Source of the DNA: Octopus vulgaris
Taxonomy: Eukaryota
DNA: 64,000 nt
Reading direction: 5' to 3'
Assembly: GCA_951406725.2 (NCBI GenBank)
Contig: OX597819.1
Span: 129,580,001 to 129,644,000 of the forward strand
Both the position numbers and the translations under genes were made by a program. Every line of letters starts with the position of its first letter. Positions within the stretch are counted from its first letter, which is position 1. This document shows positions 1,800 to 62,700 of the stretch, piece after piece. Below the pieces are notes generated by a model. That model saw only the letters and a program-made list of their open reading frames with translations, ran no database searches and had not been told where the DNA came from.

Positions 1800-3251
1800 A
1801 ATGATGTTGGCTTGTTTACTTCTCGTAACTTAGCGGTTCAGCAAAAGAACTGATAGAATAAATTAAGCATTGGGGTCAATTCATTTGACTAAAACCCCAC
1901 ATGGTGGCGCCCTAGTATGACTGTAGTTGAATGAATAAAACAAGAATAAAAATATATATAAATTTTAGGTACAGTCATGGCTGTGTGAACCCAGAACCAA
2001 CCACATGGTTCTGGGTTCAGTCCCATTGCATGCCACCTTGGGCAAGTGTCTTCTGCTATAACCTCGGGCTGATCAAACCCTTGTGAATAGATTTGGTAGA
2101 GAGGAAATTGAAAGAAGCTCATTGTACACATATATACATATACCTGTGCTTGTGCCCGTATATAACACCCACTGCACTCTCGGAGTGGTTGGCATTAGGA
2201 AGGGCATCCCGCTGTAGAAATTCTGCCAGATCAAGACTAGAGTCTGGTGCAACCATCTGGTTCGCCAGCCCTCAGTCAAAATCGTCCAACCCATGCTAGC
2301 ATGGAAGGCAGATGTTAAACGATGATGATGTGTGTCTTTGTGTTTGTTTCCCACCACTTTTGGTTTGTTTATGTCCCTGTAACCTAGTAGTTCAACAAAA
2401 AGAGACTGATAGAATAAGAAGCAGGCTTAAAAATAAATTTCTTCAAAGTGACAGTCTAATGATTGAAATAATAAAAGATATCTGATCGTTAATTAGCCAC
2501 AGGTCATCTTTCATTTAGTGACCTTTGAAGCTGAAAAATGTTCCACCTTTGGCATTTCTCTGTTGTATGTATTATCACTTTGCATCCAAGACCACATTAT
2601 CCAATATATTCTTACTCTTTCAAAACAGTAGGGCAAGGTATAAAGATTTGGCTGCTATTTCTAGTAGATTGAATGATCATATAGGCAGCTTGGTTTCAAT
2701 GTCTGGTTTTAATGTTTTGGAAAATTGGATGTTCTTGTTTTGAATTGATTCTTGTGTGTGTAAATATGTGTATATATATATCATCATCATCCGCTTTCCA
2801 TGCTAGCATGGGTTGGATGGTTCGACCGGGGTCTGGGAAGCCAGGAGGCTGCACCAGGCTCCAGTCTGATCTGGCAGTGTTTCTACAGCTGGATGCCCTT
2901 CCTAATGCCAACCACTTCAAGAGTGTAGTGGGTGCTTTTTACGTGCCACCAGCACAGGTGCCAGGCGAGGCTGGCAGCAGCCACGATCGGTTGGTGCTTT
3001 TTACATGCCACTGGCACAGGAGCCAGTCAAGGCAGCACTGGCACCAACCACATTCGGATGGTGCTTTTTACGTGCCACCGGCACAAGTATCACAACTACA
3101 ATTTCCATTTGATATTTATTTTAATATTGATGTACTTGACTCAATAGGTCTCCTCAAGCACAGCAGGTCACCCTACGATCCAAGGTAAGCACAGCAGGTT
3201 GTTCTGCAATTCAAGGTACTTTGGATATATATATGTATGTATGTATATGCT

Positions 3252-4935: not shown

Positions 4936-5855
4936 ATATCATCATTTAACATCCATTTTCCATGCTGGCATGGCTTAGACAGTTTGATTGGAGCTAGTGA
5001 GTCAGAGAGCTGCACCAGGCTCCAGCAAAAGGAAGTGACGAAGGCCTAAATACATAGGGAACAATCTGAAATTTAGAGAACTACTACTTGAAACATTTGA
5101 TGGAGATGAAGATGAGATAGAGATGTGTAATGTAGAGGAGAGCTGGCGGTTCCTTTGGACCAATCCATTGAGGGCAACAGACTAAATCTGGCTGGTGAAA
5201 AGTTCCAGCCAGGCCAAGGGTGATATGGTGGAACAGTGAAGTATACAGAATCATAAAACTGAAGAGACTTGCTTGGAAGGATTGGAAGTATGGGGGTAGC
5301 AGAGAATTATACTGGCTGGCTAGAAGAAAAGCTAGGGGACATATTTAGCAAGGGGAGAAACAGAGCAGGTGGTCCTTGCCAATATTCTACAGTGGGGATC
5401 AGAGGTATGAGGTTTTTTGGATTACAAAACATTGAGGCAGAAAGAATCAAGATCATCATCATCGTTTAACGTCTGTTTTCCATGCTAGCATGGGTTGGAC
5501 GGTTCGGCCGGGGTCTGGGAAGCCAGGAGGCTGCACCAGGCTCCAATCTTGATCTGGTAGAGTTTCTACAGCTGGATGCTCTTTCTAACACCAACCACTC
5601 TGAGAGTGTAGTGGGTGCTTTTTATGTGCCGCCAGGGGAGGCTGGCAACGGCCACGATCGGTTGGTGTTTTTTATGTGCCACCAGCACGGAAGCCAGTCA
5701 AGGTGGCGCTGGCATCGGCCATGTATGGATGGTGCTTTTTAGGTGCCACCGGCACAGGTGCCAGGGTAGGCTGGCAATGGCCACGAATGGTTGGTGCTTT
5801 TTATGTGCCACTGGCACAGAAGCCAGTCAAGGCGGCGCTGGATAATGGTATACTT

Positions 5856-6854: not shown

Positions 6855-7630
6855 TTGGTGACTGGCACCTGTGCCATTGGAGCGCTAACAGCTCCATCCG
6901 AGCAGAATCACTGCAAGAGCAGCTGTCTGGCTTCCGTGCCGGTGGCACGTAAAAGGCACCATTTGAGCGTCATCATTACCAGCATCGCTTTACTGGCACT
7001 TGTGCCGGTGGCATGTAAACAAAAACATTCGAGTGAGGTCATTGCCAGTGTCGCTGGACTGACTCCTGTGCAGGTGGCACGTAAAAAACACCATTTTGAA
7101 CGTGACCATTGCCAGTACCGCTAGGCTGGCCTTCATGCCGGTGGCACGTAAAATCACCCACAACACTCTCGGAGTGGTTGGCGTTAGGAAGAGCATCCAG
7201 CTGTAGAAACTCTGCCAGATCAAGACTGGAGCCTGGTGCAGCCATCTGGTTCGCCAGTCCTCAGTCAAATCGTCCAACCCATGCTAGCATGGAAAGCAGA
7301 GGCAAAGTGGCTGAGCTCTTTTTTAGGGTTGGGCCTCTTGGAGGCAATGACTGAGACCTTTGGCATTATGTTGTGCTTGAGAAGAAGACCCGTCAAGCCA
7401 AGTAAAATCACAGTCATGGCAGATACTGGTGTCATGCAAATGGCACCCATGTTGGTGGCATGTAAAAGCACCAATTACACTCTCGGAGTGGTTGGCGTTA
7501 GGAAGGGCATCCAGCCATAGAAACCATGCCAAATCAGACAGGAGTCTGGTGCAGCCTTTCAGCTTGCCAGCCCTGGTCAAACTGTCCAACCCATGCCAGC
7601 ATGGACAACGGACATTAAATGATGCTGATG
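6855..7630 (+). mobile_element. RTE-LINE 3' end/UTR repeat with (GAT)n tail and ~55-60 bp internal minisatellite (representative of 20 or more copies)
   Basis: Conserved gagtggttggcgttaggaagggcatccagctgtagaaac...ccaacccatgctagcatggaaagcggacgttaaacgatgatg. Other copies at about 240-640, 2780-3200, 5455-5845, 25490-26250, 27090-27520, 32250-32460, 34640-34990, 38560-38970, 41450-41790, 43900-44535, 49440-49855, 51685-51960, 54510-54750, 55985-56390, 56940-57475 and 62240-62480. Confidence 0.85.
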
Positions 7631-8248
7631 TGTGTTGTGTGTGTGTGTGTGTGTGTATGTATATATATATATATAAGAACGCATTAAGAGGCTTCCAAAT
7701 AGGAAAGCCTTGTGCTAGAAAGAGCAGTAGAAAACTCAAACCACTAATTATGGATAAATTCTCAAAAGGATTGAACATTAAAAACGTTTACCATCTAATT
7801 TAGTTCCTAGACTATGGTTTCTAACTCATTCCAGTAAAAAAAGCATGGTGGTATCTCGTATATACCCTAATTTATAATTTTAATAATTATTACCTTTGAA
7901 GGTTATTTTTTCCATGCTGACCACTTGATAAAATTGTTACTTTATATTTAAATTAACAATCTTATCCTTATATATATATATATGTGTGTGTGTGTGTTTG
8001 TGTGTGGCTTTGCAAATGAAAATCCATGAATAAGGGAAAAAGTTGACTATGTTAATAGTAGACACATTTGTAGTTGTATAGACTAATAAATGTTATGCAG
8101 ATCAAGCTTAACAACTGCAAGTGAAATTCTATCCAAAAGTCCAAATGCTGCTGTTTCATGTTTCTTCCTCAAAATTCTTTTGAATTCAAAGTCAGCTCTG
8201 CTGGCATTCTTGAAGGAGATGACAAACTGGGGATGGTATTTCCTCAAA

Positions 8249-9219
8249 AGGCGGCAAGCTGGCCGAATTGTAGTGCGCTGGACGAAATTCTTAGCGGTAT
8301 TTTGTCTGCTGCTACATTCTGAGTTCAAATTCCGATGAAGTCGACTTTGCCTTTCATCCTTTCGGGGTTGATTAAATAAGTACCAGTTACGCACTGGGGT
8401 CGATATAATCAACTTAATCTGTTTGTCTGTCCTTGTTTGTCCCCTCTGTGTTTAGCCCCTTGTGGGTAGTAAAGAAATAGGTATTTCGTCTGCCATTACG
8501 TTCTGAGTCCAAATTCTGCCGAGGTCGACTTTGCCTTTCATCCTTTCGGGGGTCGATTAAATAAGTACCAGTTACGCACTGGGGTCGATATAATCGACTT
8601 AATCTGTTTGTCTGTCCTTGTTTGTCCCCTCTGTGTTTAGCCCCTTGTGGGTAGTAAAGAAATAGGTATTTCGCCTGCCGCTACATTCTGAGTTCAAATT
8701 CCGCCGAGGTCGACTTTGCCTTTCATCCTTTCAGGGGTTGATTAAATAAGTACCAGTTATGCACTGGGGTCGATATAATCGACTTAATCTGTTTGTCTGT
8801 CCATGTTTGTCCCCTCTGTGTTTAGCCCCTTGTGGGTAGTAAAGAAATAGGTATTTCGTCTGCCATTACGTTCTGAGTCCAAATTCTGCCGAGGTCGACT
8901 TTGCCTTTCATCCTTTCGGGGGTCGATTAAATAAGTACCAGTTACGCACTGGGGTCGATATAATCGACTTAATCCCTTTGTCTGTCCTTGTTTGTCCCCT
9001 CTGGGTTTAGCCCCTTGTGGGTAGTAAAGAAATAGGTATTTCGTCTGCCATTACGTTCTGAGTCCAAATTCTGCCGAGGTCGACTTTGCCTTTCATTCTT
9101 TCGGGGGTCGATTAAATAAGTACCAGTTACGCACTGGGGTCGATATAATCGACTTAATCTGTTTGTCTGTCCTTGTTTGTCCCCTCTGTGTTTAGCCCCT
9201 TGTGGGTAGCAAAGGAATA
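8249..9219 (+). repeat. SINE-derived tandem array: one tRNA-like head plus 5 x ~185 bp bodies, flanked by a 14-bp TSD
   Basis: AAAG(A/G)AATAG recurs at 8471, 8656, 8841, 9026 and 9211; TSD ggtat(t/g)tcctcaaa at 8235-8248 and 9220-9233. Confidence 0.92.
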
Positions 9220-9999
9220 GGTATGTCCTCAAACTTCATAATTTAATGGATAACCATTGCTCAATATGACATGCAACGAGGGTTTTATTCAGGGCAACTT
9301 TGTGTCTTTTTCTTTTGAGCTCCTCTAACATAGTGGTCTGTGCAGGGGTCACTATACAATCTAGGGCAGGTGAGGGCTCTCCATTGGGGAAGTGTGTCCT
9401 CCACATAAGAGCTGTGACTTTATAGTATGGCCTTGGTGCTTGTGATTTCTGCCATATATGTTGGTAATATATACTGGATGGAAGCACTCCGTCGGTTACG
9501 ACGACGAGGGTTCCGGTTGATCCGATCAATGGAACAGCCTGCTCGTGAAATTAACGTGTAAGTGGCTGAGCACTCCACAGACACGTGTACCCTTAACGTA
9601 GTTCTCGGGGATATTCAGCGTGACACAGAGAGTAACAAGGCCGGCCCCTTGAAATACAGGTACAACAGAAACAGGAAGTAATAGTAAGAGAAAGTTGTGG
9701 TGAAAGAGTACAGCAGGGATCACCACCCCCTGCCGGAGCCTTGTGGAGCTTTAGGTGTTTTTGCTCAATAAACACTCACAACGCCCGGTCTGGGAATCGA
9801 AACCGCGATCCTATGACTGCGAGTCCGCTGCCCTAACCACTGGGCCATTGCGCCTCCACTAATATATACTAGTGGATGATGTAAATGTAGCTCTGTTGGA
9901 AGGAGTTGTTGGTGGTAATGGTAGATATCCATGATTCAGAGCTACACAAGGGGATGACCTGTACAATGTTTCTGTACATGCTGATCTCTGTGTCTTTCC

Positions 10000-13501: not shown

Positions 13502-13970
<469 letters not shown>

Positions 13971-14036
13971 TTGTTTCAAGCCTTATGTACGTTTATTTTA
14001 TTCACTTTATTTACTCAGTGTTTTGTTTCTTTTCAG

Positions 14037-15321
14037 CAGTCACAGTTTCACTCGGCTTCTAAGTCGACTCTGCTCAATAAAGCAGTGCATGACATATCTG
14101 ACTCGGATGCAACAGAAGAACCAGAGTCTCTCCCAGACTCAGAACCTGACTCTGATGTTACAGTTGATCCTGATACCTTAGCATACAATAGTGGTCAAGA
14201 TCTCTTTTCTGACTATTCCAATAACTCTTTTGATAAGGCGGACACTGTAGTCACACCTTGTCTATCTACGGAACTTTTGAAAATAATGTCTTCAAAAAAA
14301 TCCAGACAAGAAACACATGCAATTTCTGAAAGTGATTCTGACTCGGAAAGCGAACAAAATTCTAGAAGTAAATACAATTCCAAGCACCATGTCCAGAAGT
14401 TATCCAGTTCTGTCAAAGTCGATTCCAGAAAGCATCAGAATCCCTGCCGCGAGAATGGCTCTCGGTCTTCTTCACATGAATCCAGACAGAAAGCTAATAA
14501 AACAAATCATCATACTCTTCAACATAGCTCTTCTTCATCTTCAAAAGATAGTTCTAATTCTTCAAAAAAATCATCGCATAAACCTGATAGTTCAGCTGTT
14601 AACGGGTCAGAATTATTTTCAAATCCAGTAAATTTATGTCATCGTTCGTCTTCTCTGCCCAGCCAATCAAACAATTCATCGACATCAAAGAAGACATCCC
14701 ATTCTTCTCCTACTCCTACTCCTACTCCTACCCCTAAGAAAACATCCCATACAGAAAAGGCTACGAATCAAAATAATACTTCATCTTCTTTGAACTCAAA
14801 AATGCATGATATTTTTGGAAGTGATTCTGATGAAGATTTTGTTGTAAATAACAATTCTAGTGATAGCGAGAATGAGAGCAGTAGCAACAGTGATGTAAAT
14901 GGCAACTCACCAGAGACAAACTCCCATAGTCCCATGACACATTCATCATCAAGTCATCATAAAATGTCACCATCATCTTCACATTCATCTTCTTCATCTT
15001 CTGCATCAAGTTCTTCAGATTCAGATTCAGATTCAGATGATGATAACTCAAGCGTTGATACGCATTCGCCAAAATCTAAAATCAAAAGTGTTAAGTCAGA
15101 CAGCTCTGACACTTCCCACAAACCCTCCAAAACAAACTCTTCAGGTAAAAGCTCTGTCACATCAACAACTGAAACTGCCTTAGACAAATTGGTTTCATCA
15201 TCTGAAGACAGTGAAACTGTTAAAAGAAAACGGCCAGTCACACCAACCAAACTTATTTGCAGGTTTGGAACTGCTTGTACAAGAAAAAATCCTACACATT
15301 GGGAGGACTTTGAGCATCATG
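14037..15321 (+). CDS. TDP1: TDP1 exon A: large Ser/Asp-rich N-terminal exon ending in a PBZ zinc finger
   Basis: Acceptor tttcag|CAG at 14036/14037 (NAGNAG alternative 14040). Open frame for 428 codons, first in-frame ATG at 14286. Donor CATG|gtaatt, phase 1, matching the next exon. The 5' boundary is less certain than the 3' boundary. Confidence 0.85.
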
Positions 15322-15917
15322 GTAATTATTATATTTTCCCTTTTTCTTTGCCCTTTTATTTATTGTTGTTTATCAAAAAATTGTTCTGGTTGGCTAGCGG
15401 TTATATAAATTTTTGTAGTTTATATAGTATTTTTTAAAATTGCACAGAATTGAAAGCCAAATCTTTCGAAGCCGTGTATCAACAATACGATATTCCTTTT
15501 CAAGAATGCACCATCAGTGATGTTTCTGGGGTCTCAAGAGATTTCAGCCCTTTCAACATCAGGACACTTTGCTCAGTTGACCCACCTGGTTTATTGAATA
15601 AAAAATATTCCAGAAAAATGCCTACAAATTATTTAAACCTGGATATATATATATATATATATTCTACCAAATATATACGTTTTTATTATTATTTTGCATT
15701 TTACTTAATCATTGGTATATTATTGTTATTTTATTTTCAACATTTCTATTATATGTAATTTTCTAAATGGTGTAATTTAATTGTTCATTTTGAATTGATA
15801 ATAGGTGGTTTTTTTCTAATTTTTATATATATATATATTATATTTTGTGAAATCTGATTTAGTAGTTCTAAATTGAATTTTTCCCTGTAAGTTAGGAATA
15901 ATATTCTGTTATATAAT

Positions 15918-17828: not shown

Positions 17829-20800
17829 TGTGTACAGTGCTCAGGTGCACTACAACTCATCTAAAGTCTATATATAATCAGGTGAAGTTTCGGCGGATTT
17901 CGGAAAGCATGAGGGCCTTAAAAGATGCAGTGTCATGGCAGTCAACAACTGACGCAGGCAGTTTATTCCATGCTTCAGCAACTCTGAGCGTGAAAAAATG
18001 TTTCCGAAAGTCATGGGAGCTGTATTGTTTTCTGACTTTGTAGGCATGTCCACGTGTGTTAGACACATGGAGATCAAAAAGGTGTTCAGTGTTGTTGTTG
18101 GTGAGGTGGTTGATAACTTTGTGGGTGTTTACCAAGTCCGTCGCCAAACGCCGGAGCTTCAGTGAATCCATGCCCAGGGAAACAAGGCGCTCAGAATATG
18201 GTAGGTGTCTGATGGAGGGTATGCGTTTGGTTGCACGTCTCTGAACAGATTCCAGGAGGTCAATGTTCTGTGCAAGATAGGGGTTCCAAACTGATGATGC
18301 GAATTCCAAGTGTGGTCGTACCATAGCTGTATACAGTTTTAAATAGATGGCTGGAGAGCGGCTAACAAAAGACCTGCTGAGTGATGCCAAGACACCCTCG
18401 GCCTTCCTGACAATCTTAGAGATATGCTTTAACCAACGCAAATCACTGCTGACAGTGATGCCTAGGTCACGCTCGCAAGAGGATTTCTTGATATCAGTGT
18501 TGTGGAGGGAGTATGTGAACGCAGGGTTTTTTCTCCCAAAATGCATGGTGGTACACTTGTCCACAGCCAGTTTCAGTTGCCAGTCTGTGATCCATTGCTG
18601 CATTGTGTCTAGGTCTGATTGCAGGAAAGAGTTGTAGACATCAGGATCTGTCCTCTTGATTTCAAGGTACAGCTTGATGTCGTCTGCATATTTCAATACT
18701 GTGGCATTCCTTAAATTGGCATCTATGTCGTTAATGTATGCCACAAACAAGAGGGGGCCAAGGACAGATCCCTGTGGTACACCCGATGACATCTCATATG
18801 GTGTAGAGTGCTGTCCTAGAACTGTGACTACCTCCTTTCGGCTGAGGATGAAGGATTTCAACCAGTTAAAAAGGTCATCCCCCACACCCATTGCAGAGAG
18901 TTTCACCATAAGCCTTTTGTGTGGCACAGAGTTGAAAGCCTTAGCAAAGTCAAGGTAGACAACATCCACCCATGAGCCACTGTCAGTAATCTGAGTAATG
19001 TCCTCAAGGAACTCGACAAGCTGGTCACTGCAGCTGGAGTTAGGGACAAATCCATATTGTGGGGGTCGGATGAGACTGTGAGAGCTCCAGAAGTTCCAGA
19101 GTGTTTCTCTGACACACGATTCCATCAGTTTTGCAATACAGCTAGTGAGACTGACTGGGCGATAGTTGACAGGTGATGTGCGGTCGCCCTTTTTGAACAG
19201 AGGAATGACACTGGCAGTTTTCCACTGCTCCGGAGTAGCACCATTGTTGAGACAGTACTGGAAGAAAATAGAAAGCTGGTGTAAAAGGAAGTGCCTGCCA
19301 CGTTTGAGAAGCAGGTATGTAACTCCATCGAGACCAGGGGAGGCATAGTTGCGCTTATTTTGAAGGTGACATCGCAGCATTGCAGGTGTAAATTCCATAG
19401 TTGTTATGGAGTTTGCTGTTAGTGATGGTGAAGATGGTACATTTTGACTTTCAACAGTGAATATGTTTGCATAGCACTCGGCAATGAGTTCTGCGCATTC
19501 CTTGGGGTCGTCAGTGATCTGGTTTGTGTGAGGGTTGCGAAGAGGGCCCACTGGAGAGTGAGGTCTCTGCTTTGAGTGCACATATTTCCAGAAAACCTTG
19601 CTGTCAGGATTGGCTGCTATGCACTGTTCAAATTCAAGCACTGCTTTTTTTGTCACTTGCTTGAGATGGTTGGAGGATTTATTCCGCTTCTTCCTGTTGG
19701 TGTCTGATTTATGCAACCTGTATTCCCGTTCAGCAGTCCGACGTTCCCTCCTGGCAAGTCGGACCGCTGAAGTTTCCCAAATTGCCCTTTTGGGGCGGTT
19801 CTTCTTTTTTTGTTTACGTGGCACTGATGCTGCACATGCTGCCCATATTGAGTCCAGGATACTCTGGAGTATAGTATTCACATCTCCAGAGTTGTAGAAT
19901 TCACGCCAGTTTGGGTGCTGTAGTTCAGTGTGGTACAGGTTCCAATCTGCTCTCTTCCAATCGAAGGAAGCAGATTGGAGATGGTTCAGGTTTTTGTTGC
20001 CCGCAAGAGCCAGATTGGCGATGATCATAGCATGATCAGAGTCACCTAGAGGTTCCTCCGTAGTGCAATTGATAACCGCTTCAGGAGTTGTGGTGAAGAG
20101 CAGGTCCAAGGTGTTGTCGCCTCTTGTTGGAGAGGTGACTACTTGTGACCAGTTTGAGTCCAGCACAAGCTCAACAAAATCGTTTGCACTCTGTGGCCAA
20201 TGGAAGGTCTCCCAATCGATCTCAGGATGATTGAAATCGCCTGCAATAAACACATAAGTGGCTGTTTTCCTGGCAGCAGCTCGGAGGACATTGCAAAGCT
20301 GTGTGTCCCGATGGTAACTTGGGGGACGATAAACAACGCCAAGCAGGAGTGTTGACATGGTCATACGCACGTCACAGAAAAAACTTCTTCTTGTGATTCG
20401 TTCAAATCGGCACAAGGAATTACCAAAAAATTTGAACGAACGTAGACCATCACACCACCACCACGGCGGTTAGTGCGGTCCTTACGGAAGAGGTTGTACC
20501 CCGTAATGTTGAAAACCCCATCACAGAGTAAGGAATGCGCCCATGTTTCCGTGACAGTGATGAAGTCAGGGTCAACACTTCTGACGTAGGCGTTGAACAA
20601 ATGTATTTTGTTGCATAAACTGCGAGCATTTAAGGACAACAATTTGTACCCTGCTCGCAGTTTATGATGGTGTGTAGAGGATGGCAGGTTGTTCTGGCTT
20701 AGTTTCCCTGAGTTGCTGTAGTTTTTTTAGTTATTGTGGGTAGAGAGCACTCAGACCAGCTGGTATCTCTTCCACGTTTCAGCAGTCTTGACAAATCTCC

Positions 20801-22467
20801 AGATTTGTCCATCTTCCCGAAGACTGAAGCTTTCCTGTAGAGCTGAGTTCCTATTCAGGGAAGCCACTACACGTAGCTTTGGGCGTACATCGGACGGTAA
20901 GCCTGGGCGTGTTCGGAAGGTGGTCCGATTTTCCCGCCCAGCTTTAACTGAGGCCAGATGGTAAGAGGTTGCCTCAGTGGGGTCCGTAAAAGACAACTTG
21001 ATGAGCCTAGGTTTTGGGCCAGGTCGTCCAAGGCGGATAGCACCCGTTGGGGGAACGCAGCCTAGGTCTTTGGCTGAGTTGGCAGCAAAAGCCTGAAGAT
21101 CAGCCATGTCTTCTGGCACCCCAATGGCAATGACTTCATGGGTGGCAGAATCCGCGGTCTTAAATGCGACAAGAGGTACAGGTACAGGGAGGTTCTTTAG
21201 CAGAGCATTCCGATAAGACCCCTCATTGTGGAGTCCAACCTGAATGGTTGCTTTTATTCCTGCTACTTCCCCTTTTAAAGCACAGATCGATTGTTGCAGT
21301 TCTGCAAGAACCGCACTGGTCAATTGGTGTTGTTGTTGTTGCTGCTGTTGCTCTGGTTGTGGTTGATTTTGTTGTTGCTGTTGTTGTTGTTGATGTTGTT
21401 GTTGCTGCTGCTCTGGTTGTGGTTGATTTTGTTGTTGCTGCTGCTCTGGTTGTGGTTGATTTTGTTGTTGCTGCTGCTGCTGCTCTAGTTGTTGCTGCTG
21501 CTGTTGTTGTTGCTGTTGTTGTTGCTGCTGCTCTGGTTGTGGTTGATTTTGTTGTTGCTGCTGTTGCTGTTCCGCCTCCTCCACGGGAGTGGCAGGGGGA
21601 GACACAATCGTCGGTTGTGGAGGCACGCAGGCCTGACACTGAAAAGTCCAAGATTTAAGCTGAACCATCTTCCAGAGTCTATCCATCATAGCATTATGAT
21701 GGCTCTTTTTTTGGCCTGGGATCTTCTGAAAGTCCGTGGCACATTGGAGGCAGACAGAGATGAGACATGTCCCACATTCGACCCAGCGATTACGGAACGT
21801 ATTTTCGGGTTCCGTACAGATGTGGCAGGTGTGATTTTCTGGGCAGTGTTCTATTTTAGAGCAGCGACCAGTCTTATCGCACGCCGCTATGGATTTCACC
21901 ATGGCGATTCTGTTGGTTCTGGTCATCCGTAGAGACAGAAAATGTATCTACGGCTTTATATAGTTATGGTGTGACCAAGAGAATACCCTCCATCAGGCAT
22001 TTTCCATATTCTGAACACCTTACTTCCCTGGGCACGGACACATTGAAACTCCGACATCTGGCAGCTGACTTGGCAGACACCCATAAAATTATTAACCATC
22101 TTACAAACAATAACTTTGAGCACCTTTTCAAACTCCACCTGTCTAACACCCGTGGACATGTTTACAAAGTCAGAAAACAGCACAGCTCCCATGACTTTCG
22201 GAAACATTTTTTTCACGCTGAGAGTTGCTGAAGTATGGAACAAACTGCCGGCATCAGTTGTTAGTTGTCGGAGCACTGCATCCTTCAAAACTTCCATGAT
22301 TCCTGAGATTCGTCAACACTACACCTGATTTTCACCCCTCCATACACACACAAGCATGTATCTAACTCATACACTGTTCGCTTCCCAGACATTTGTACAT
22401 TACTGCATATACTTTATACGCACTTTCTGACAAGTTGTGGTGCACCTGAGCACTATATACAATAATT

Positions 22468-28499: not shown

Positions 28500-31400
28500 C
28501 GACAGGCTTCTTTCAGTTTCCGTCTACCAAATCCACTCACAAGGCATTATTCGGCCCGGGGCTATAGCAGAAGACACTTGCCCAAGATGCCATGCAGTGG
28601 GACTGAACCCGGAACCATGTGGTTGGTTAGCAAGCTACTTACCACACAATTTGTTAACCACAACACCAGCATCTGTTCTAGCATTGTCAATCTATATATC
28701 GCTAGAGGGCAGATAAATTGCTATTGCCTCCAGTGGTTGACTGTCCATCATTGACAAGACCAAACAAGGCTGAAATCACTTGATTGGGGGTCTCAGTACT
28801 GGAGGTGGAAGGGGTTTATCTTCCTGCTAGTGATATAAACAACAGTGTGTTTTGCACTCAAAGCCAATATGCAAGTGGTAACCACTGCAATGTAGTTTGT
28901 TCTAATAGAACATTCATTCTTTAAGTGGGGATAAATATTACCTCTCAGTATTAATAATGCCTCTGTCACTAATATATATATATTTCTTTACTACCCACAA
29001 GGGGCTAAACATAGAGGAGACAAACAAGGACAGACAAAGGGATTAAGTCAATTACATCGACTCCTAGTGCAAAACTGGTACTTTATTTATCGACCCCGAA
29101 AGGATGAAAGGCAAAGTCTACCTTGGTGGAATTTGAACTCAGAACGTAACGACAAACGAAATACCACTAAGCATTTCGCTCAGCGTGCTAACGTTTCTGC
29201 CAGCTCACCACCTCTGTCACTAATATATATAGTTAAGGTAGATTTGTAATGCTTTGTAATGTACTGTTAGAGTACTTTAAATGTTACCTATTCTTTCTGA
29301 TCATGGATTTACCTATAGAGTACCTGATCTCACAGGATTTAATTGGACCCTTCCACCCTCCAGGGCATAATGAACCACAACAAATATTATTGATGAGGGA
29401 CTTTCTGTCTCTGACTAACCTATACCTCTCTGATGACGGTATACTCCCCTTGCAGGGTCTTCACTCAATACAATGCTCCAAAAGCTGGGATATCCAGAAA
29501 CAGCTGTCGGAGACTATTTTTTACTATTTGTTATGTAGCTAAATTAGATTGAATTAAATTGAATTAAATGTCTTTGTCATGTCTTGCCTAATTGTTTGTC
29601 TTTCCTCACTACTTTAACCTAGTGGAGGCACATGGCCTAGTGGTTAGAGCAGCGGACTTGCGGTTGAGGGATCGCAGGTTCGAATCTCAGACTGGATGAT
29701 GTGTGTGTTTATGAGCGAAACACCTAAGCTCCACGCGGCTCCGGCAGAAGGTAATGGCGAACTTCTGCTGACTCTTTCGCAACAACTTTCTCTCACTCTT
29801 TCCTCCTGCATCTTGCAGCTCACCTGCGACGGACTGGTGTCCCGTCCAGGTGGGGGAACCTATACGCCAAGAAACCGGGAAACCGGCCCTTATGAGCCAG
29901 GCGTGGCTCGAGAAGGAACAAACAACAACAACTACTTTAACCTGCATTAAAATATCTTTTTCCAGAATATGCGCTGCTCAAATTGGGTTCTTTCTAATAT
30001 GCCTGTGTGACTTATATGTCATTAAATACAGTAATTTCAGTATTTTTGATATGAAAAAGATAGTTTTGTAAAACTCAAAAAAGCCTTTGATATTTTCTTT
30101 AGCAGTGGTATCTCTGGCCTTTTAAGTCTGAGTTATGATTCAGTATTTTACATACTAAATAAAAATTTGGTAGGGTTTCCCATAGGTAGTATAGAGAGTT
30201 GGAAAGTTCTAATCAACTGAAATTCTCCAAGCAGTTATTCATCAAAAATGAACAACCACCCTGGTTTCACAACGATGCTCATCTACAAGCATCTTGTGAT
30301 GTCTAGACAAGGGTACCCTTCACATTTTACATATATACAGGCTTACCTAAGCTTACATTGGTAATTAGTTCCTAGACATGCGACTTGTAAAAATCACAAA
30401 ACGCAAAAAATCATTTTAAAAATGTATTGACATATATTTGTTTTAATAAATGGTTTATACATATTTTCACATGTATTCCTTTTTTGTTAATGCTCCACTT
30501 CAGTATTTGTTTTTTTTTAGGTATTTTTAAAATCAGATAGAATGACTAAAATATATTTTTGCCATTACTTTCTTTAACCCCCACCCACCCCACCCAGCAG
30601 TGTAAAGTCGAAATAGGCACAGACATGGCTGTATGGTAAGAAGCTTGCTTCCCGACCACATGATTCTGAGTTCAGTCCCACTGTGTGGAACCTTGGGCAA
30701 GTGTCTTCTACTTATAGCCTCAGGCGGACTAAAGCCTTGTGAGTGGATTTGGTAAATAGAAACTGAAAGAAGCCCATCATCAGTGTGCATGTATGACAGA
30801 GTGTAAGTATCTTGAGAGAAAAGTTGGGCATAAGAGGCATCATATGTGGTGTGCAAGCGAGACTACTGTGCTGGTATAGTCATGATGTGTATGGATGAGG
30901 TCAGCTGTGTGAAGAGGTGCTGAACTCTAATGGTGGAGGGAACCTGTCGAAGCGGTCGACCCAGGAAGACATGAGATGAGGTGGTGAAGCATAATCTTCA
31001 AATGTTGGGCCTCGTGAAGGCAATGCCAAGTGACTGAGACCTTTGGCAATATGCTGTGCCAAGTGAAATTGTAGTCGTGGCCGATGCCAGTGTTGTGTTA
31101 TTAGCATGTAAAAAGCATCCTTTGAACGTTAGGCAATGTACTGTGCTTGAGAGGCCCCATCAGGGCCAGTGAAATTGTAATCATGACTGGTGCAAGCGTT
31201 GCGTAACTGGCACCTGTTAATTTGTTAATAGTATTTATGTTCCTCTTTAAGCAGTATTAAATACAGTTTGATATCTTTTTTCATTTCTTAATTCCCTTTT
31301 CTTTTCTATTTTTAGGCCCGTTTAGATATTCCTTTTGGAACTCATCATTCGTGAGTATAATTAATATTAATGAGCATTAATTAATGCTCATGTTTCTTTT

Positions 31401-38500: not shown

Positions 38501-41500
38501 TTAAATGTTCCCTGACTTAATATGTTTATACTAATCTAGCTATTATTTTTCATCACCATCATCATCATCATCATCATCGTTTAACGTCCGCTTTCCATGC
38601 TAGTATGGGTTGGACGGTTTGACTGTGGGCTGGTGAACCAGATGGCTGCACCAGGCTTCAATCTTGATCTGGCAGAGTTTCTACAGCTGGATGCCCTTCC
38701 TAACACCAACCATTCCGAGAGTATAGTGGGTGCTTTTACGTGCCACCAGCACGGGGGCCAGTCAGGCGGTATTGGCAACGACCTCACTCGAATCTTTTTA
38801 TTTTTTTTTTACACATGCCAATGGCACAGGTGCTACTAAGGCAATGCTGATAACGATCTCGCTTGAATGGTGCCTCCTACATGCCACCGGCATGGAAGCC
38901 AGTTAGCCGCTCTGGCAATGATCAAGCTCAAATGGTGCTCTTAGCACCCTACTAGCACGGGGCACAAGTGCCATTTTCTCTGAGTACTTTGTTTTTTAAA
39001 ACAATTCTAGTATTCTATGATCAACCAGTGTATACCATTACAGTGGTTCTGCCAAATACCAACCATTTCCCTGTCAACAATATTAGAGATTATTTTGCCA
39101 CCTTCCCTTTCTTTATTCTTGAGAAGACAAAATCGAGTTTGCATGCCTGTAATACTTCTTCCTTCACCATGATGTTGGACAGGCTTGAAATGTTTAAAAT
39201 TATCTAATTTAATTAAACACAGCAATTTATTCCTTTTGCAATTTTCACAATTTCCCCCCACCAAAGAAGCCTGTACCTCCATCAGAGATACTGTGTTATA
39301 CATCTGCTTAGTGATCCACCTATCACTGCTTCATCTAGGACAGGGAAGTCTATAATCTGCCAATGGTGGTTATGGTGTCAGAAACATGCCTGGAATTGTC
39401 AGCTGTATTCAACAAAAGAATTACGAATAAACATATTAATTAGTTGATGAGCATTGATTGAGTCAGTAGATTATCTGGTGAAATACCTTGCACTATTTTG
39501 TTGAGTTCAAATTCCACGAAGGTCAATTTCGACTTTCATTCTTCAGTGGTCAATAAATTAAACGCCTGTTAAATATTAAGGTTGAAAATCCTATTTGAGT
39601 CACGCTTCCCTTTTGTCATTTGGAGTTTGAAAGGAAGTGAGCTGGCAGAATCTTTAGCATGCCGGGCAAAATGCTTAGCAGCATTTTGTCTATCTTTATG
39701 TTCTGAGTTCAAACTCCACCAAGGTCAACTTTGCTTTTCATCCTTTGAGGTCCATTAAAATAAATACCAGTTAAGCACTGGGATTGATGTAATTGACTTA
39801 TCCACTTTTCCAAAATTGCTGGCCATGTACTGAAATTGAAAACCATTATTTGAAGTTTGATAAAATAAGTACAAGCGTAGAGCCAGAAATCCTCTCAGGG
39901 CTAAAACCCTGCTGAGGTCACCATTGCTTTTCATCAAATGGGGTTAGATAAAATAATTTTCTGATCAAATACTTGAGATGAAAATCTCGCAATGTCAGAA
40001 ATCACTATTATCATTTTTCTATAAAACAAAATTATTTCCTGTTAACTTTTTAATGTTCCTTGCATTAACCCTTTCGTTACCGTATTTATATTGAGATGCT
40101 CTGTGTTTCTTTCAATTATTTTAAAATATAATAAAGAATTTAGTAAAATAACTTAGTTATCATTAAGCTAGTATTAGGAACGTAAATTGTGACTAAGGTT
40201 TGGTGGAAGATTTTAATTCAAAACTTATGAAAACAAGACATTTGCACTACAGAGCCAGAGGCGGTTTCAGCCGGGTTGGTAACGAAAGGGTTAAATATCT
40301 TTTCTAAACTAGTATAATGTCTTGCTTGAAACAAAGGAATGGCAGGTGTCGTAGTTAGTTTGTTCTGATTCCAGCTGTGAGCTTGTTTCTTTTTGTTGGA
40401 AACTGAAGTTTATAATACCTAATATTATTTATTGATGTTTTTGTTTTTTTTTTCTTTTCTCTTTTCTCAGATTTTATTAGAAAATGGTCCTGATAAACTA
40501 GAAGTTGGTTCTTGGCCTGTTGTTTGTCAGTTCTCTAGTATTGGTTCACTTGGGCCTACTGCAGATAAATGGTTGTGTGGAGAATTTCACCAGAGTTTGG
40601 CTGCCTGTCGTTCCAGTATATATTCCCCATTGACACCTGATAAAATGAAACTGGTGAGCAAACATTTGACACATTCATGTTTATGTGTGTTGTATGGAAT
40701 GTATGTTGTGGTATTAATGTTGTGTTTATTACACTGTGTCGAGTGTATTATGTTTGCATATATATGTTGTGTGCGTGTTTTATCTCTTAGTCAGAAGCCA
40801 AGGACTGTGCACATGACACCTGACAGGGTCTCCAAGACTGGTAGGAAGAAAGAAGGAAGTTGTTCTTAAACTGAAAATCTAGCTTGTATGCTTGCAACAG
40901 AGTAAATTCTGTTAAAGGTACCAAGAGAGCAGATGATGGTATTAGGCTGGGAAGGCGGCGAGCTGGCAGAAATGTTAGCGCGCCGGGCGAAATGCGAAGC
41001 CGTATTTCGTCTGCCGTTATGTTCTGAGTTCAAATTCCACCGAGGTCGACTTTGCCTTTCATCCTTTCGGGGTCGATAAATTAAGTACCAGTTACGCACT
41101 GGGGTCGATGTAATCGACTTAATACCTATGTCTGTCCTTATTTGTCCCCTCCCTGTTTAGCCCCCTGAGGGTAGTAAAGAAATAGGTATTAGACTGGGAA
41201 ACAGATTAGGACTATCACTCAAGGTTTAAATTCAGAATGCAAAATGCCTGACCAAGTGCCACAAGGCTCATGTCTGGTGTTCTAATGTTTCCATGAGTTC
41301 ATCACCTGAGACTGAATTTATTAACCCCAGAAAGATGAAATCTGATAATTCACCACCTGTGTTGTGTACTACCTGTGTTATATTCACTGTGTTTGCATTG
41401 TTAGTGTTTGTAGTACATGTGTATGTGTGTGCGGCATTGTTTGTGTATTAGCACTTGTGTACCATGTCGCCTTACTAGCTCTTGTGCTGGTGGCACGTGT

Positions 41501-44500
41501 AACATTCGAGCGAGGTCGTCACCAGTGCCACTGGACTGGCTCCTCTGCAGGTGGCATGTAAAAAGCACCATTTGGGCGTGGCCGTTGCCAGTACCACCAA
41601 ACTGGCCCTCGTGCTGGTGGCATGTAAAAGCACCCACTACACTCTCGGAGTGGTTGGCGTTAGGAAGGGCATCCAGGTGTAGAAACTCTGCCAGATCAGA
41701 TTGGAATCTGGCTCGCCAGACCTCAATCAAATCGTCCAACCCATTCTAGCATGGAAAGTGGACGTTAAATGATGATGATGATGATGTGTTGGGTGTGAGA
41801 ATAGTGTGTGTGTGTGTGTGCTGCATCGTTTGTGTGTGTTGCATTCACTGTGTTGGGTTTATGAAAGATGTGTACATGTATGTTTATGAGTATATGAATA
41901 TAGAAAGATGACATCCTCTTCAACAAAGATATGGCATTGAATGCAAATCTTTCACCCAATTAGTCGTACACCAAACTAAGATTTGCTGGAAACTAACACC
42001 CAAAATCAGTGCAAATTAAAATCTAATTTTCTAATCTAATCTAAAGTTTAACCAGAGTAATCTCCCTTGATAACCATAATCCTTTAGAATTTCAAATAAT
42101 CGGCTTCAGTTTCGTCAGGGGTTGTTTCAAAGTAATCTCCCATGACAATCCCCACCCTTGCTCCTATAATCTTTAATCTAATTTATTTTATGTTGAAAGT
42201 CTATTCAGTGTTTTTTTTCTCAGACTTGGCCTCATTTGATAATTACCTGACATTCAGTTTCTATTGGCGTTAATCTATATTAGGATATGGTATGAATTTA
42301 CAATTTAAAAATAGGATAAAATCTTCATAAGAATTTATCAAGTAGTTAGCATGAAAAACCTCATAAGAGAAAAAAAAAACATCAATTTTTTTCTTTTAAA
42401 CTTATTTATTTATATTATATAGAGGGCACTATTACACATAGATGCCTCATGCTATGAGGGACTCTTAAAGTCAAAACTACTAAAATAAATAAACACGTCG
42501 TACTGAAACAATTCTCGAAGCAGGTCATTTAAAAACAGGATTTAGCCACATATCACACTGTGATTTCGTAATCAGCGCAATAATATGCGCTCTTTACTCT
42601 TCAGTGTGTGCATAATTCAAGATATATAATAAATAAACAAAAACAACATACCAAGCGAACAGCTATCGTATCCAGCGCAGCATGTAGGAATGTTTACCCC
42701 TTACACATCTATGTAAATGGCAGGCTTTTTCGAATTGCATTTTGGTAACAATGTAGCGTGAGGATATGGTATGTGTAGGAGAAAGGAATTCTGATGTTTC
42801 AAGCAAAGCCTTTCTGTGGAGCAAAACAGGAATAAATCTATGTTAAGAATTAGCAAAATTAATTTGCTCTGTGTCACCGTAAAGATAAATCTAATTAATG
42901 TGTACTGAAGGAACAAAAATGAAATACAACTTAATTCGTCTTTCCTATGCGATATGAACTTATCTTAGCTTATGAACTTTAAGACGTTTTACTGATACAA
43001 ACTACCATTAATTTCTTTGGACTCTAGATTTGATTCTGTAATTTTATCTACTTAACAGCTCCCATGTATGCAAACGTGTGTGTGTCTGTATGTGTGTGTG
43101 TATATACATATATATCTATGTATGTATGTGGGTATTTTGAAAACGCCTCATGGAGTGACAGCTGTGCCCTGCATAGTTACAGGTTGCCCTTTGGCAAGGT
43201 ATTGCACTCATTCAGCCACCCTGCCAAGGACATATATTTCTTTACTGCCCACAAGGGGCTAAACACAGAGGGGACAAACAAGGACAGACAAAGAGATTAA
43301 GTCGATTACATCGACCCCAGTGCATAACTGGTACTTATTTAATTGACCCCGAAAGGATGAAAGGCAAAGTCGACCTCGGCGAAATTTGAACTCAGAACGC
43401 AGCGACAGACGAAATACCGCTAAGCATTTCGCCCGGCGTGCTAACGGTTCTGCCAGCTCACCACCTTGAGCAAGTATGTGTATAATAGAATAAAGGAATA
43501 AACAAGCAAACAACTGATATTAAGTCAGATTATGACATTTATATATTTAAACATTGACACAAAATGAGGGTGGAACTGAATGCCATAGGAGTTTAGGTGG
43601 CAAGAGGTCACTAAAAGACCAGTTGACAAATCTTTTCATCTTTGATTTACTTCACTCATTAGACTGTGGCCATGCTGGGGGAACTATGCTGAAGAATTTT
43701 AGTTGAAGAAATTGACCCTGATACTTATTCTATCAGTCGCTTTTGCCAAACTGCTAAGTTATAGGCATGTAAACACAGCAACACTGGTTATCAATTGGTG
43801 ATGGTGGACTAAATAGAAACACTACACCCATGTATTTGTATATGGTACATGCTAGTATTTTGGAACAGTGATATGGTCTGTCCGAATTATTGTTATTACA
43901 ACTGGCTTTCGTGCCAGTGGCACGTAAAAAGCACCATCCGATTGTGGCCATTGCCAGCCTCGCCTGGCCTCCGTGCCGGTGGCACGTAAAAAGCACCCAC
44001 TACACTCATGGAGTGGTTGGCGTTAGGAAGGGCATCCAGCTGTAGAAACATTGCCAGATCAGATTGGATCTGGTGCAGCCTTCTGGCTTACCAGACCCGA
44101 GTTGCACCGTCCAACCCATGCCAGCATGGAAAGCGGAAGCTAAACGACGATGATGATGATGATGATGATGACATAAAACTGATCATCATAAGTTGAATCC
44201 AAAGCTAGATGAGAAAAAAGGAGGAAAGAAGGTGTGCAGATAGTCTCTGTACGCATGCTGGCAGGGCTTGCTCTGAGCATTCTAATTTTTTACGTGGCAT
44301 GTGTAAAAGATTCAAGCGAGGTTGTTGCCAGTACCGCCTGACTGGCCTCCATGCCGGTGGCATGTAAAAGCACCCACTACACTCTCAGAGTGGTTGGCAT
44401 TAGGAAGGGCATCCAGCAGTAGAAACTCTGCCAGATCAAGATTGGAGCCTGGTGCAGCCATCTGGTTCGCCAGCCCTCAGTCATGCCTCCAACCCATGCT

Positions 44501-45506
44501 AGCATGGAAAGCGGACGTTAAACGATGATGATGTACTGGCCACTTTGGGCAGTTCATGAAGAGCACTCTCAGAGGAACTGTGTGGACTAAAGTGACTGGG
44601 AGGTGGATACATTACCACAATACAGATGGTGCCTGATGACATGTGCCTCATGGCATCTGATGAATTCATAGACAGCTGTGTTCTGCTGCTTTAAGGTGAA
44701 AACAGAGGAGGGTGGTGAAGCAATGGAATGTGTGCAGAGCTCTGTGGCTTGACCACGCATACACTGAAGCAGATTCATACAAAGTACTTGTGTGACAGTA
44801 TCTATTTCTTTACTACCCACAAGGGGCTAAACACAGAGAGGACAAACAAAGGGATTGAGTCGATTTTATCGACCCCAGTGCATAACTGGTACTTAATTTA
44901 TCGATCCCAAAAGGATGAAAGGCAAAGTCGACCTCGGCGGAATTTTAAATTCAGAACGTAGCGGCTGACGAAATACCTATTTCTTTACTACCCACAAGGG
45001 GCTAAACACAGAGAGGACAAACAAGGACAGATAAGGAGATTAAGTCGATTATATCGACCCCAGTGCATAACTGGTACTTAATTTATTGACCCCGAAAGGA
45101 TGAAAGGCAAAGTCGACCTCGGCAGAATTTGAACTCAGAACGTAAAGACAGGCGAAATACTGCTAAACATTTCGCCCGGCGTGCTAATGATTCTGCCAGC
45201 TCGCCGCCATCATGTTGGCTTGCATACAGATGCTATCTGCACACCTTCATCTTTCTTCCCTTTTTCTCATCCAGGTGTGGATTTTACCTATGATGACCAG
45301 CTTAACCTAACACCATTATCGACAACTAATATTGATTTGTTTAAACTCCCGTAACTTAGCAGTTCAGCAAAAGACTCTGATAGAATAAACACCAAACATA
45401 AAAGGAACAAGTACTGCAGTCAGTTTGTCCAATTAAACCCTTGAAAGTTGTTTGCCAACATGGCTGCAGTCTAATAAGGGAAACAAATGAAAGAATGGAA
45501 ACTGAA

Positions 45507-59798: not shown

Positions 59799-62700
59799 AT
59801 TTAGGGCTAAAAAAAAAATCCACTAGGTGGATAGCCATATGCTAGAAGAAGATCACATACGATCTTTTTTAGCCCTAAATATACACATGTATTGAAATTT
59901 TTTCTGATTTTTCAGATTTTTTATATGCTAGGCTACTGGTTTTCAATTGATATTAATTAAATTCTCATTATTTAAATATATATAATATATATATATAATG
60001 TATATGTCGCAGGCGTGGCTGTGTGGTAAGAAGCTTGCTTCCCAGCCACATGGTTCCAGGTTCAGTCCTACTGCGTAGCACCTTAGGCAAGTGTCTTCTA
60101 CTATAGCCTCAAGCTGAGCAAGTCTTGTGAGTGGATTTGCTAGACAGAAACTGAAAGAAGCTCATTGTGATGATGATGATATATATGCATATATATGTGT
60201 GTGTGTGTATTTGTGTGTCTGTTTTTGTCCCCCACACCATTGCTTGACAACCAGTGATGGTGTGTTTACATTCTCGTAACTTAGCGGTTTGGCTAAAGAG
60301 ACCAATAGAATAAGTACTAAGCTTACAAAGAATATGTCCTGGGGTTGATTTGTTTGACTGAAGGCAGTGCTCCGGCATGGCCACAGTCAAATGACTTGAA
60401 TCGAATAAAAGATTATGTAAACACACATGCACGTTCATACACACACACACACACACACACACAAATTTACACTGCTAGATGCCTACACACACAGACACAC
60501 ACAAATAGAAATATCTTCATTAAATGTATCTTCTTCATACATAACTTCATACTTATTTATTTATTTTTGAGGCTTTCCCATTTGCTGTGACACTTGAAGC
60601 CTTAAAAAAAACCCCCTCTCCCTCCCCCATCTCCTCGCAAATGGCAAACGCTAATAGTAGTTTGCCATGTTAATCCAGGAGCTTAACTCGTTAAATGATT
60701 GGCTCAGCAGGATGTTTCTATGACAGAGCCAGTGTCTTCCAAGTCACTGAAACTGGATAGCTAAACAACATGAATTCTCACTTGTCAACCTGGGATTTGA
60801 AACCCAACTTTGTTTTCTGCATCTTTTTCTTTTTTTTTTTTTTTGCTATCACCTGACAATGCTAGATTCCTTAGGCTTGTTGTCTATAAGTCTTTTCTCT
60901 GTGTGTGTGTGTAAGATCGAGCAGGGCTTTGATTGAAGGTGATAAGATGATCTTGGTCATGACCATCCTGTCTTACAGCTTCGGACATTATATCTAGGAC
61001 TACATCAGTCAATGTGTTCTTCTCTTTTTTTTGTTTCAGCTGTGTGGATCTGGAGTTTACTTTGTTACTTGTAGTCTTGACTTCTATTTCACTGAATGGT
61101 ACTTTGGGAAAGTACCATAAAAGGACGGCGAGCTGGCAGAAACTTTAGCATGCCAGGTGAAATGCATAGCCATATTTCATCTGCCGCTACGTTCTGAGTT
61201 CAAATTCCGCCGAGGTCGACTTTGCCTTTCATCCTTTCGGGGTTGATAAATTAAGTACCATTTACGCACTGGGGTTGATATAATCGACTTAATCCCTTTG
61301 TCTGTCCTTGTTTGTCCCCTCTGTGTTTAGCCCCCTGTGGGTAGTAAAGAAATAGGTACTTTGGGAAAGTGTTTTCTCCTTTAGCCTTTGGGCCAACTGA
61401 GCCTTGGAAGTGGAATTGCTAACTGTAAACAAGATGGAGGCATTTGGGAATATCATATGGAGATTGTGTCAGAAATGAGGAAGTAAAAAGAAGAAAGAAG
61501 TAGGCAATAGGGTCCTATGAGGAACTCCCTTACCACAGTAAAGAAATGCAAGCTCAGGTTGTGTGGGCATGTCACCCACTCATCAGAGATGGCCAAAACA
61601 ATCCTTCAGAGAACAGTCAAAGGTGGGAGATGCAGAGGTAGAGAGGAAAAGAGGTGGGAAAACATCTCTGAGTGGACAGGCTTAAAGATGAGAGATGCAG
61701 TGCGAGAGGTAGAAGACGGAGACATGTGGAGGGAGCTGGTCACAAGGTCATCAGTGGTGGCTGAACAGTCAGCCAGACTAAAGGATACGTAATGTAAAAA
61801 CAGGATGGAAACTCATTATAAGATTGTAGCAAACCTTACCAAAACAGACAGCAGGGCTTGGTGTAGTCTTTTAGCTTGGTCAGTTCCTGTCAAACTGCCC
61901 AACCCATGGAAGCATGGGAAATGGGTGTTAAATGATGGTGATGGTGATGATATAATCATCACCAATTGATGTCTGCTTTTCCATACTCGCGTGGGCAGAT
62001 GGAATTTGTTGAGGTAAATATTTTATGGCTGGATGCCTTACCTGTTACCTGCTCTCACCTGTTTCCATGCAAGGTAATATTTTCCCCATAGTTAGACATG
62101 TTTTTTTTGCAGAAGATTGGAAATGAACAACCTTACTTGTATAAAAATGATACTTATTTACAAATATTACATGTGATGTCTAGACACTGGCACACACAAG
62201 TATACACTCATACATACATACATACATACATTATATATATATGGCACGTAAAAAGCACCATCCGATTGTGGCCGTTTGCCAGCCTCGTCTGGCCCCCGTG
62301 CCGGTGGCACGTAAAAAGCACCCACTACACTCACAGAGTGGTTGGTGTTAGGAAGGGCATCCAGCCGTAGAAACATTGCCAAATCAGACTGGGCTTGGTG
62401 CAGCCTTCTGGCTTCACAGACCCCAGTTGAACCGTCCAACCCATGCCAGCATGGAAAGCGGACGCTAAATGATGATGATAAATTAGAAAAAACCCACCTT
62501 TTATCAATTCAAAATGAACAATTATAGGTTTTTATTATGTTTTTATTATCATTTTGCAATTTACTTTGCATCTCAAAATAAATACAGTAACGAAAGGGTT
62601 ATAAGCAAAAATGCATGGAAAAAGGAAAGAAATTATGGTTTAAATTAGGTCATAGATTAAATCATGGTTTTATTTTTGTTGAATGTTTAATGAAATATCT

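Follow-up and report, generated by a model that had tools for sequence, protein, structure and literature searches.

The window, a 64-kb stretch of the Octopus vulgaris genome (G000:C6:129580001-129644000, from an assembly of 2.8 Gb in 227 contigs), contains three tandem arrays of a tRNA-like SINE, with five, nine and two units and one head each. The 231-bp consensus of this SINE consists of a head (1-47), a GGTATTT site at 48, a core extending to 166 and a tail ending in AAAGAAATA, termed here the T tail. All internal junctions in the window (13/13) read AAAGAAATA|GGTATTT. The coordinates were re-derived, and the features are as follows.

8235..8248, plus strand: array 1, left copy of the target site duplication (TSD), GGTATTTCCTCAAA, 14 bp, 1 mismatch between copies
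8250..8295, plus strand: array 1, single SINE head, consensus 1-47, with the A-box-like motif
8296..9219, plus strand: array 1, five bodies of 184, 185, 185, 185 and 185 bp
9220..9233, plus strand: array 1, right TSD copy, GGTATGTCCTCAAA
23462..25210, minus strand: array 2, whole (TSD, head, nine bodies, TSD)
25191-25210 and 23462-23481, minus strand: array 2 TSDs, 20 bp, 1 mismatch
25139-25186, minus strand: array 2 head
23482-25138, minus strand: array 2, nine bodies, with private variants common to units
28963..29231, minus strand: monomer 28981-29212, 18-bp TATATA-type TSD
39633..39850, plus strand: older sister SINE with an "O" tail, head and core as in the T family, other 3' tail; end approximate
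40938..41200, plus strand: monomer 40954-41184, 16-bp GGTATTAG TSD (40938/41185), 1 mismatch
43235..43465, minus strand: monomer, no TSD found
44803..45208, minus strand: dimer, head and two bodies 9% apart, no TSD found
61098..61370, plus strand: monomer 61124-61354, exact 16-bp GGTACTTT TSD (61098/61355)
2931-3085, 5631-5841, 6927-7153, 27252-27474, 34641-34820, 49605-49853, 57117-57309: sites of a second repeat

The initial annotation had described the three single-head arrays, the enclosure of the 5- and 9-unit arrays each in one TSD, the TSDs at 8235/9220, 23462/25191, 40938/41185 and 61098/61355, and a copy at 28982 with a TA-rich TSD, and all of these were recovered. The head of array 1 differs from the consensus by ~20% and its bodies, which correspond to consensus 48-231 (B-box-like motif, core and LINE-like tail), by 2-5%. 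The second repeat is also abundant, with internal 62-67-bp tandem units in 2-4 copies at each of its seven window sites. Other features are a LINE-like element at 17878-21947 (minus strand), recognized by eye from two frames, one endonuclease/RT-like (863 aa) and one rich in glutamine (398 aa), a long serine-rich open frame at 13767-15437 (plus strand) that may be a host-gene exon, and a 98-bp tandem duplication at 25747-25940 with 98% matches.

The elements have the features of SINEs, being short, non-coding, present in high copy number and flanked by TSDs of mostly 10-22 bp. Putative A-box-like and B-box-like motifs lie at consensus 11-23 and 73-85, and the repeated body begins between them, within the tRNA-like region. 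ARAGORN found no tRNA in the 64-kb window, and an Rfam search of 8200-9300 returned one chance match (E=5.3) and no family above noise. The core may resemble a MetaSINE-type domain. In the available text on MetaSINEs, the criterion is a 66-bp Meta domain directly after the tRNA region (PMC4824008). The body length was earlier described as nucleosome-sized; 231 minus 47 equals 184, so it probably needs no further explanation.

The family was sampled from 160 random stretches of 10 kb (1.6 Mb, with distal contig parts under-sampled), from 30 loci retrieved with a head-plus-junction query, which is biased to arrays and low divergence, and from exact pattern counts for genome-wide figures. The random sample contained 96 T-tail elements and 202 other matches, mostly older sister SINEs whose head and core are as in the T family and whose 3' tails differ (O tails). 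The random loci held 83 headed T elements. Single-unit copies numbered 49, two-unit copies 22 and three-unit copies 10, with one copy each of four and seven units, so that 34/83 (about 41%) were multi-unit. Exact T 3' ends number 134,670 genome-wide (reversed-pattern control, 4), of which 30,049 run into site 48 and 2,730 into site 15 (control 0 for both). The T elements often carry 1-4 additional bases, mostly AA, between the left TSD and the head. The O-tail SINEs end in (ATT)n, often followed by the next SINE head, forming full-length chains (e.g., L079, L109, L134, L163).

Array 1 was compared with contigs from four independent runs, labelled as four organisms. The 5' end of array 1 was bridged in 4/4 runs and its 3' end in 3/4, the remaining run (X8) having no right-flank cover, and the site-48 junction was found at loose contig ends in 4/4. 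Since independent contigs show them, the junctions themselves are not artefacts of this assembly. No empty allele of the array 1 insertion was listed in the four runs, and no RNA dataset was listed as covering its left flank.

The insertion target of the SINE was examined through its TSDs. The TSD calls reached a score of at least 9 in 58/98 elements compared with 0.4% of shuffled pairs, and a TSD was found for 38/71 T-ended random elements. These 38 TSDs start with TATA (8), GGTA (7), GATA (5), AATA (3), AGAA (3) or other sequences (12); NNTA accounts for 27/38 against a background of 9.7%, and GGTA for 7/38 against 0.26% (p=8e-12). Bases before the nick are biased as well: a purine occupies position -3 in 31/38 (p=1e-4), and G occupies position -1 in 2/38. 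The target motif is RNH^DRTAT, within which GGTA is the most enriched 4-mer yet a minority class. The GGTAT preference proposed from the window is thus real as an enrichment, but it belongs to a wider motif and its window share of 4/5 overstates the genome. Exact SINE ends followed by GGTAYV number 8,479 genome-wide, and a GGTA TSD was present in 0/7 random multi-unit copies with a TSD.

The junction was said to be always the same, which holds in the window but not genome-wide. Among 52 junctions following a T end in random loci, 43 were at 48, 5 at apparent 42-43 (likely site 48 plus a short insert), 2 at 15 and 2 elsewhere. The GGGCA tail variant prefers AGAA targets and joins at 15: AGAA follows 11,081 of 33,606 GGGCA-tail ends compared with 1,866 of 101,064 GGGTA-tail ends. 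Among the first 100 matches listed in each case, the C tail was present in 87 junction-15 ends, and the GGGTA tail in 91 junction-48 ends and 95 GGTAYV ends. Each internal site fits its own target class (site 15, GGC^AGAAAC; site 48, AGC^GGTAT), and position -1 is C in 6/7 AGAA sites.

Tail-only matches led to a LINE with a 1146-aa ORF2 (L053:996-4433), which has the features of the L1/Tx1 group: it contains Exo_endo_phos, RVT_1 and zf-RVT domains, and its best solved match is L1 ORF2p (E=5e-51). Among the top 30 zf-RVT loci, 17, all of one family, align to the SINE tail over 37-42 of 43-46 bases and end in AAAGAAAT; identity between LINE and SINE tails reaches 42/45 bases, with AAAGAAATA as the common end. 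The SINE tail matches the 3' ends of L1/Tx1-like LINEs. Elements of the Tx1 clade are noted for targets within other repeats (PMC4494074). In 20 further copies assigned by their tails to the closest LINE family (20 of 40 tail matches were examined), AGAA followed the tail in 8/20, the C tail was present in 6/20, and 2/20 tails lay at SINE site 15 (L289 and L291, LINE 3' ends at head position 15). These observations make it likely that the AGAA-cutting partner LINE has been identified. A GGTA-cutting partner was not found in the loci covered: GGTA followed 0/20 tail matches of the closest family, and no LINE with a GGTA target or at site 48 was seen among the 50 of 150 zf-RVT loci listed.

Sequence-specific targets occur among these LINEs, one family abutting (TATC)n and another AGAA in 8/20. 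The (TATC)n-associated sequences, L053:2-4827 and nine other loci, form an L1/Tx1-like family with a related tail, most copies of which are followed by (TATC)n; the 1146-aa ORF2 is open in L053. Further LINE families with related tails were found at L255, L263-L267, L271 and L272, several copies having identical downstream sequence, which suggests specific targets.

Insertion of the SINE into its own position 48 is shown at the DNA level. The arrangement of site 48, at most 8 intervening bases and a head, which describes a nested precursor with the second head and inner TSD kept, has 110 exact matches genome-wide (control 0). In 28 distinct nested loci examined, the insertion is preceded by a resident head in 18 and by an existing junction in 10, and in 24/28 a full T unit stands between two copies of the site-48 sequence. 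The earlier proposal that the element targets itself is thus confirmed. By an estimate using exact-match rates, retained-head forms make up ~1 in 100 junctions. The SINE also lands at an antisense GGTAC site in its own core, with 777 exact ends and a head and TSD in 6/10 examined. Tandem arrays of head plus inner TSD, with a ~64-bp period, were also observed (G000:C10:17996023-17996502, with at least 8 copies, L195 and L213); they are the counterpart of the body arrays.

The composition of the multimers bears on how a single head is left. In two-unit chains (n=30), the median unit-unit difference was 0.098, compared with 0.098 for unlinked copies (p=0.71), and the last unit belonged to the older O-tail family in 17/60 site-48 multimers. 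Dimers thus join two separate copies. The site-destroying C48 variant occurs in 10/60 first units, 0/55 second units and 15/54 monomers, which argues that head and first body come from one donor, and G43, an allele of the head, shows linkage with the first body (p=0.003) and not with the last (p=0.21).

The T-O chimeras, in which T units end in an O unit, were compared with other copies for the state of their TSDs (intact meaning at most 1 mismatch in 13, with simple-repeat flanks excluded). The outer TSD was intact in 0/12 T-O chimeras, of which the O-tail end was placed heuristically and 4/12 came from the query-biased search, compared with 23/48 T monomers (p=0.002), 19/34 T-T multimers (p=0.0005) and 7/17 O monomers of similar divergence (p=0.023). 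Restricted to random loci, the count was 0/8 (p=0.016 against the pooled monomer figure), and an alternative TSD score gave 3/10 for T-O chimeras, 32/50 for T monomers, 24/37 for T-T multimers and 7/8 for O monomers. In several T-O chimeras a decayed TSD adjoins the head. The heads themselves are young: their median divergence of ~0.08 (n=12 with old hosts) is like that of T monomers (p=0.63) and below the 0.18 of same-age O monomer heads (n=66, p=0.0004). Had these chimeras moved as one RNA while the T family was active, their TSDs would be expected to be as fresh as those of T monomers; they are decayed. A young head inside an old TSD, although seen at few loci, suggests that the resident head was replaced by that of an incoming copy. 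For T-O chimeras, homology-driven exchange of the resident head for that of the new copy is therefore likely.

On balance, we consider it somewhat probable that this holds for the single-head multimers in general, a new copy landing at position 48 of a resident, its head replacing the resident head and a 184-bp body being added within the old TSD. The SINE head carries the SINE's own insertion motif, site 48 (AGC^GGTAT) fitting the preferred RNH^DRTAT. An L1/Tx1-like LINE with a 3' end matched by the SINE tail would supply the nicking endonuclease, with two putative partner specificities, the GGGCA tail being directed to AGAA and junction 15 and the commoner GGGTA tail to GGTA and junction 48. 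After target-primed reverse transcription, the cDNA end would share homology with the 47 bp that precede the nick, and pairing between them may resolve the 5' junction; about one event in 100 would be resolved without homology and retain the second head. Arrays of four or more units would then arise by local duplication of one or two units, which the variant patterns support.

Several observations limit this reading. The TSDs of T-T multimers are as intact as those of monomers, and the T-O age test has no bearing on these multimers, the two window arrays among them. That no LINE copy followed by GGTA was found in the loci covered also counts against it. The TSDs of T-O chimeras are worse than those of O monomers of similar age, which head replacement does not predict. 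The model also requires a hit frequency at site 48 that is ~40-fold that at the antisense GGTAC site (30,049 vs 777 exact ends, the former including later duplications). Two candidate signatures were rejected. Host-type heads are not the rule, A36 occurring in 2/17 T-O heads compared with 60/87 O monomers. A last unit older than the first was suggested by a pooled rare-variant excess (p=0.007) that was driven by loci from the head-plus-junction query; random loci gave 8 up and 5 down (p=0.49). Head divergence did not track last-unit divergence.

The strongest rival, which we regard as rather unlikely, is nested insertion followed by remobilisation, in which Pol III transcription continues through the body and tail of the host copy, and the resulting multimer RNA inserts elsewhere as a single unit with a new TSD. 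Nested precursors exist, the consensus has no T4 terminator, head and first body have alleles in common, and T-T TSDs are as intact as those of monomers (19/34 vs 23/48). No special hot spot would be needed either, as the retained-head rate per site is estimated at ~0.3% compared with ~0.5% for the antisense site. However, this reading is lowered by the absence of fresh TSDs in T-O chimeras (0/12), and old-type O tails would require a partner that was still active. Among 32 last units compared, no pair had 3 or more shared rare variants and no dimer family from one master was seen, and by our estimate about a thousand precursors would need to give tens of thousands of multimers. For T-T arrays, including the two window arrays, remobilised multimer RNA is possible.

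A second rival concerns the nick and partner step and can coexist with head replacement. Priming by microhomology had been offered as one way for the element to target itself; alone it is unlikely, because the target preference reaches upstream of the nick and the LINE family itself prefers AGAA. In this rival, the target class would be inherited through pairing of the primer with RNA downstream of the tail and not chosen by the endonuclease. The discrete TSD-start classes (GGTA, TATA, AGAA) do match sequences frequent after the tail, and mismatches between TSD copies are slightly more frequent at positions 1-2 (7 and 5 of 52). We nevertheless find it improbable, given the -3 purine, the -1 C in 6/7 AGAA sites and the AGAA preference of the LINE.

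Template switching, with the cDNA stopping at 48 and jumping to the 3' end of another SINE RNA, would account for mixed units within a single TSD, and a hairpin predicted at consensus 34-58 has site 48 in its loop. However, random loci contained no headless TSD-flanked insertion starting at 48, insertion exactly at 48 is seen in DNA, T-O chimeras carry old TSDs, and the dependence of the junction site on the tail-specific target class would be left unexplained, so that we give this mechanism little credence.

Retrozymes are tandem retroelements copied by a rolling circle. Rolling-circle copying of a circular 184-nt RNA, also raised initially, would fit the near-identical units of long arrays (minimum 0.000-0.038 in 6 arrays of four or more), but it is hardly tenable in view of unrelated dimer units, last units from a sister family, hierarchical and ABAB variant patterns with shared CpG decay, two junction sites, a count of 0 among 96 random elements for headless insertions that begin at 48 and do not touch a locus edge, and no Rfam ribozyme match in 8200-9300, where the retrozyme hallmark of a self-cleaving ribozyme in each unit is lacking.

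Long arrays have a different internal structure from dimers. In arrays of four or more T units (n=6), the closest pair of units differs by 0.000-0.038, below the 1st percentile of between-locus differences (0.041). Variants are ordered A B A B B in array 1, A B A B at L118 and alternately at L149. In array 2, units 2 and 5 are identical, and four variants are common to all nine units, one of them absent from every unit outside the array. The ABAB orders, the identical units and the variants private to an array are best explained by sequential local duplication; reiteration by the reverse transcriptase is possible.

Taken together, these results would describe a self-homing SINE whose own head is the landing site for its partner endonuclease, in which at least a third of insertions exchange the resident head for their own by homology, rejuvenating the promoter and adding a body, and in which a single-base change in the tail alters partner specificity together with the junction, giving two parallel minisatellite routes. 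As a complete scheme this is tentative, and we would place it short of probable. Self-insertion is likely a route from scattered repeats to small satellites, and it is a countable one, since the genome still contains the intermediates between the dispersed retroposon and the tandem repeats. Should head replacement be true, homology-resolved 5' joining would here be a main outcome of retrotransposition and not a rarity, SINE tails and heads would be swapped between families in place, as in T-O chimeras, and insertion ages based on SINE divergence would be misleading for ~40% of copies. The two tail-defined classes comprise tens of thousands of loci, enough for comparative genomics alone to test the specificity of the endonuclease and the formation of 5' junctions.

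Homology-resolved 5' junctions, in which the cDNA end pairs with DNA upstream of the nick, are known from R2 and chimeric L1 insertions as rare or engineered events, and not as the main outcome for a SINE family. We found no report of a SINE with its own head as target, of head replacement or of two tail-matched junctions in a search outside which lie subscription papers, Repbase and Dfam, any of which may describe the family. The available text on octopus repeat annotation gives class totals only (PMC13282606). Among repeat-targeting pairs, the crocodilian SINEU-3 and Tx1-Mar LINEs, and Xenopus Tx1 in Tx1D, are described in the available text (PMC4494074). As in SINEU-3/Tx1-Mar, there is a preferred site in another repeat, tandems form by sequential insertion and the endonuclease sets the Tx1-clade target (PMC4494074); there, however, insertion is into a DNA transposon, and a TSD is found between tandem copies. 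The octopus SINE targets its own head, mostly leaves neither an extra head nor an inner TSD, and still has dispersed copies as the majority of its insertions.

Among single-head arrays, the blood clam Scapharca broughtonii has TSD-(SINE)n-TSD arrays of similar structure, with one full head, head-truncated units and a single outer TSD (PMC11481361). Those arrays make up ~3% of copies, their internal units are without the tail end as well, and the suggested mechanism is unequal recombination (PMC11481361), whereas the octopus arrays make up ~41% of headed copies, their units end at the true 3' end and the junction is the insertion target. Squamate sSat likewise has tandem units of partial SINEs, one longer terminal unit, dimeric higher-order patterns and homogenised long arrays; it lies near telomeres and is ascribed to duplication by recombination, and the available text does not propose self-targeting (PMC10702118). 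The B2, Dip and Ves SINEs of rodents and bats are similar in multimer frequency, 40-49% of B2 and Dip being in multimers, with insertion and dimer RNA left undecided between in that text, but their units are full-length, joined at the tail and each with its own head (PMC8466645). Single-head arrays, SINE satellites, multimers and repeat-targeting SINE-LINE pairs are thus already known, and targeting of a SINE's own head appears, within the literature searched, to be new.
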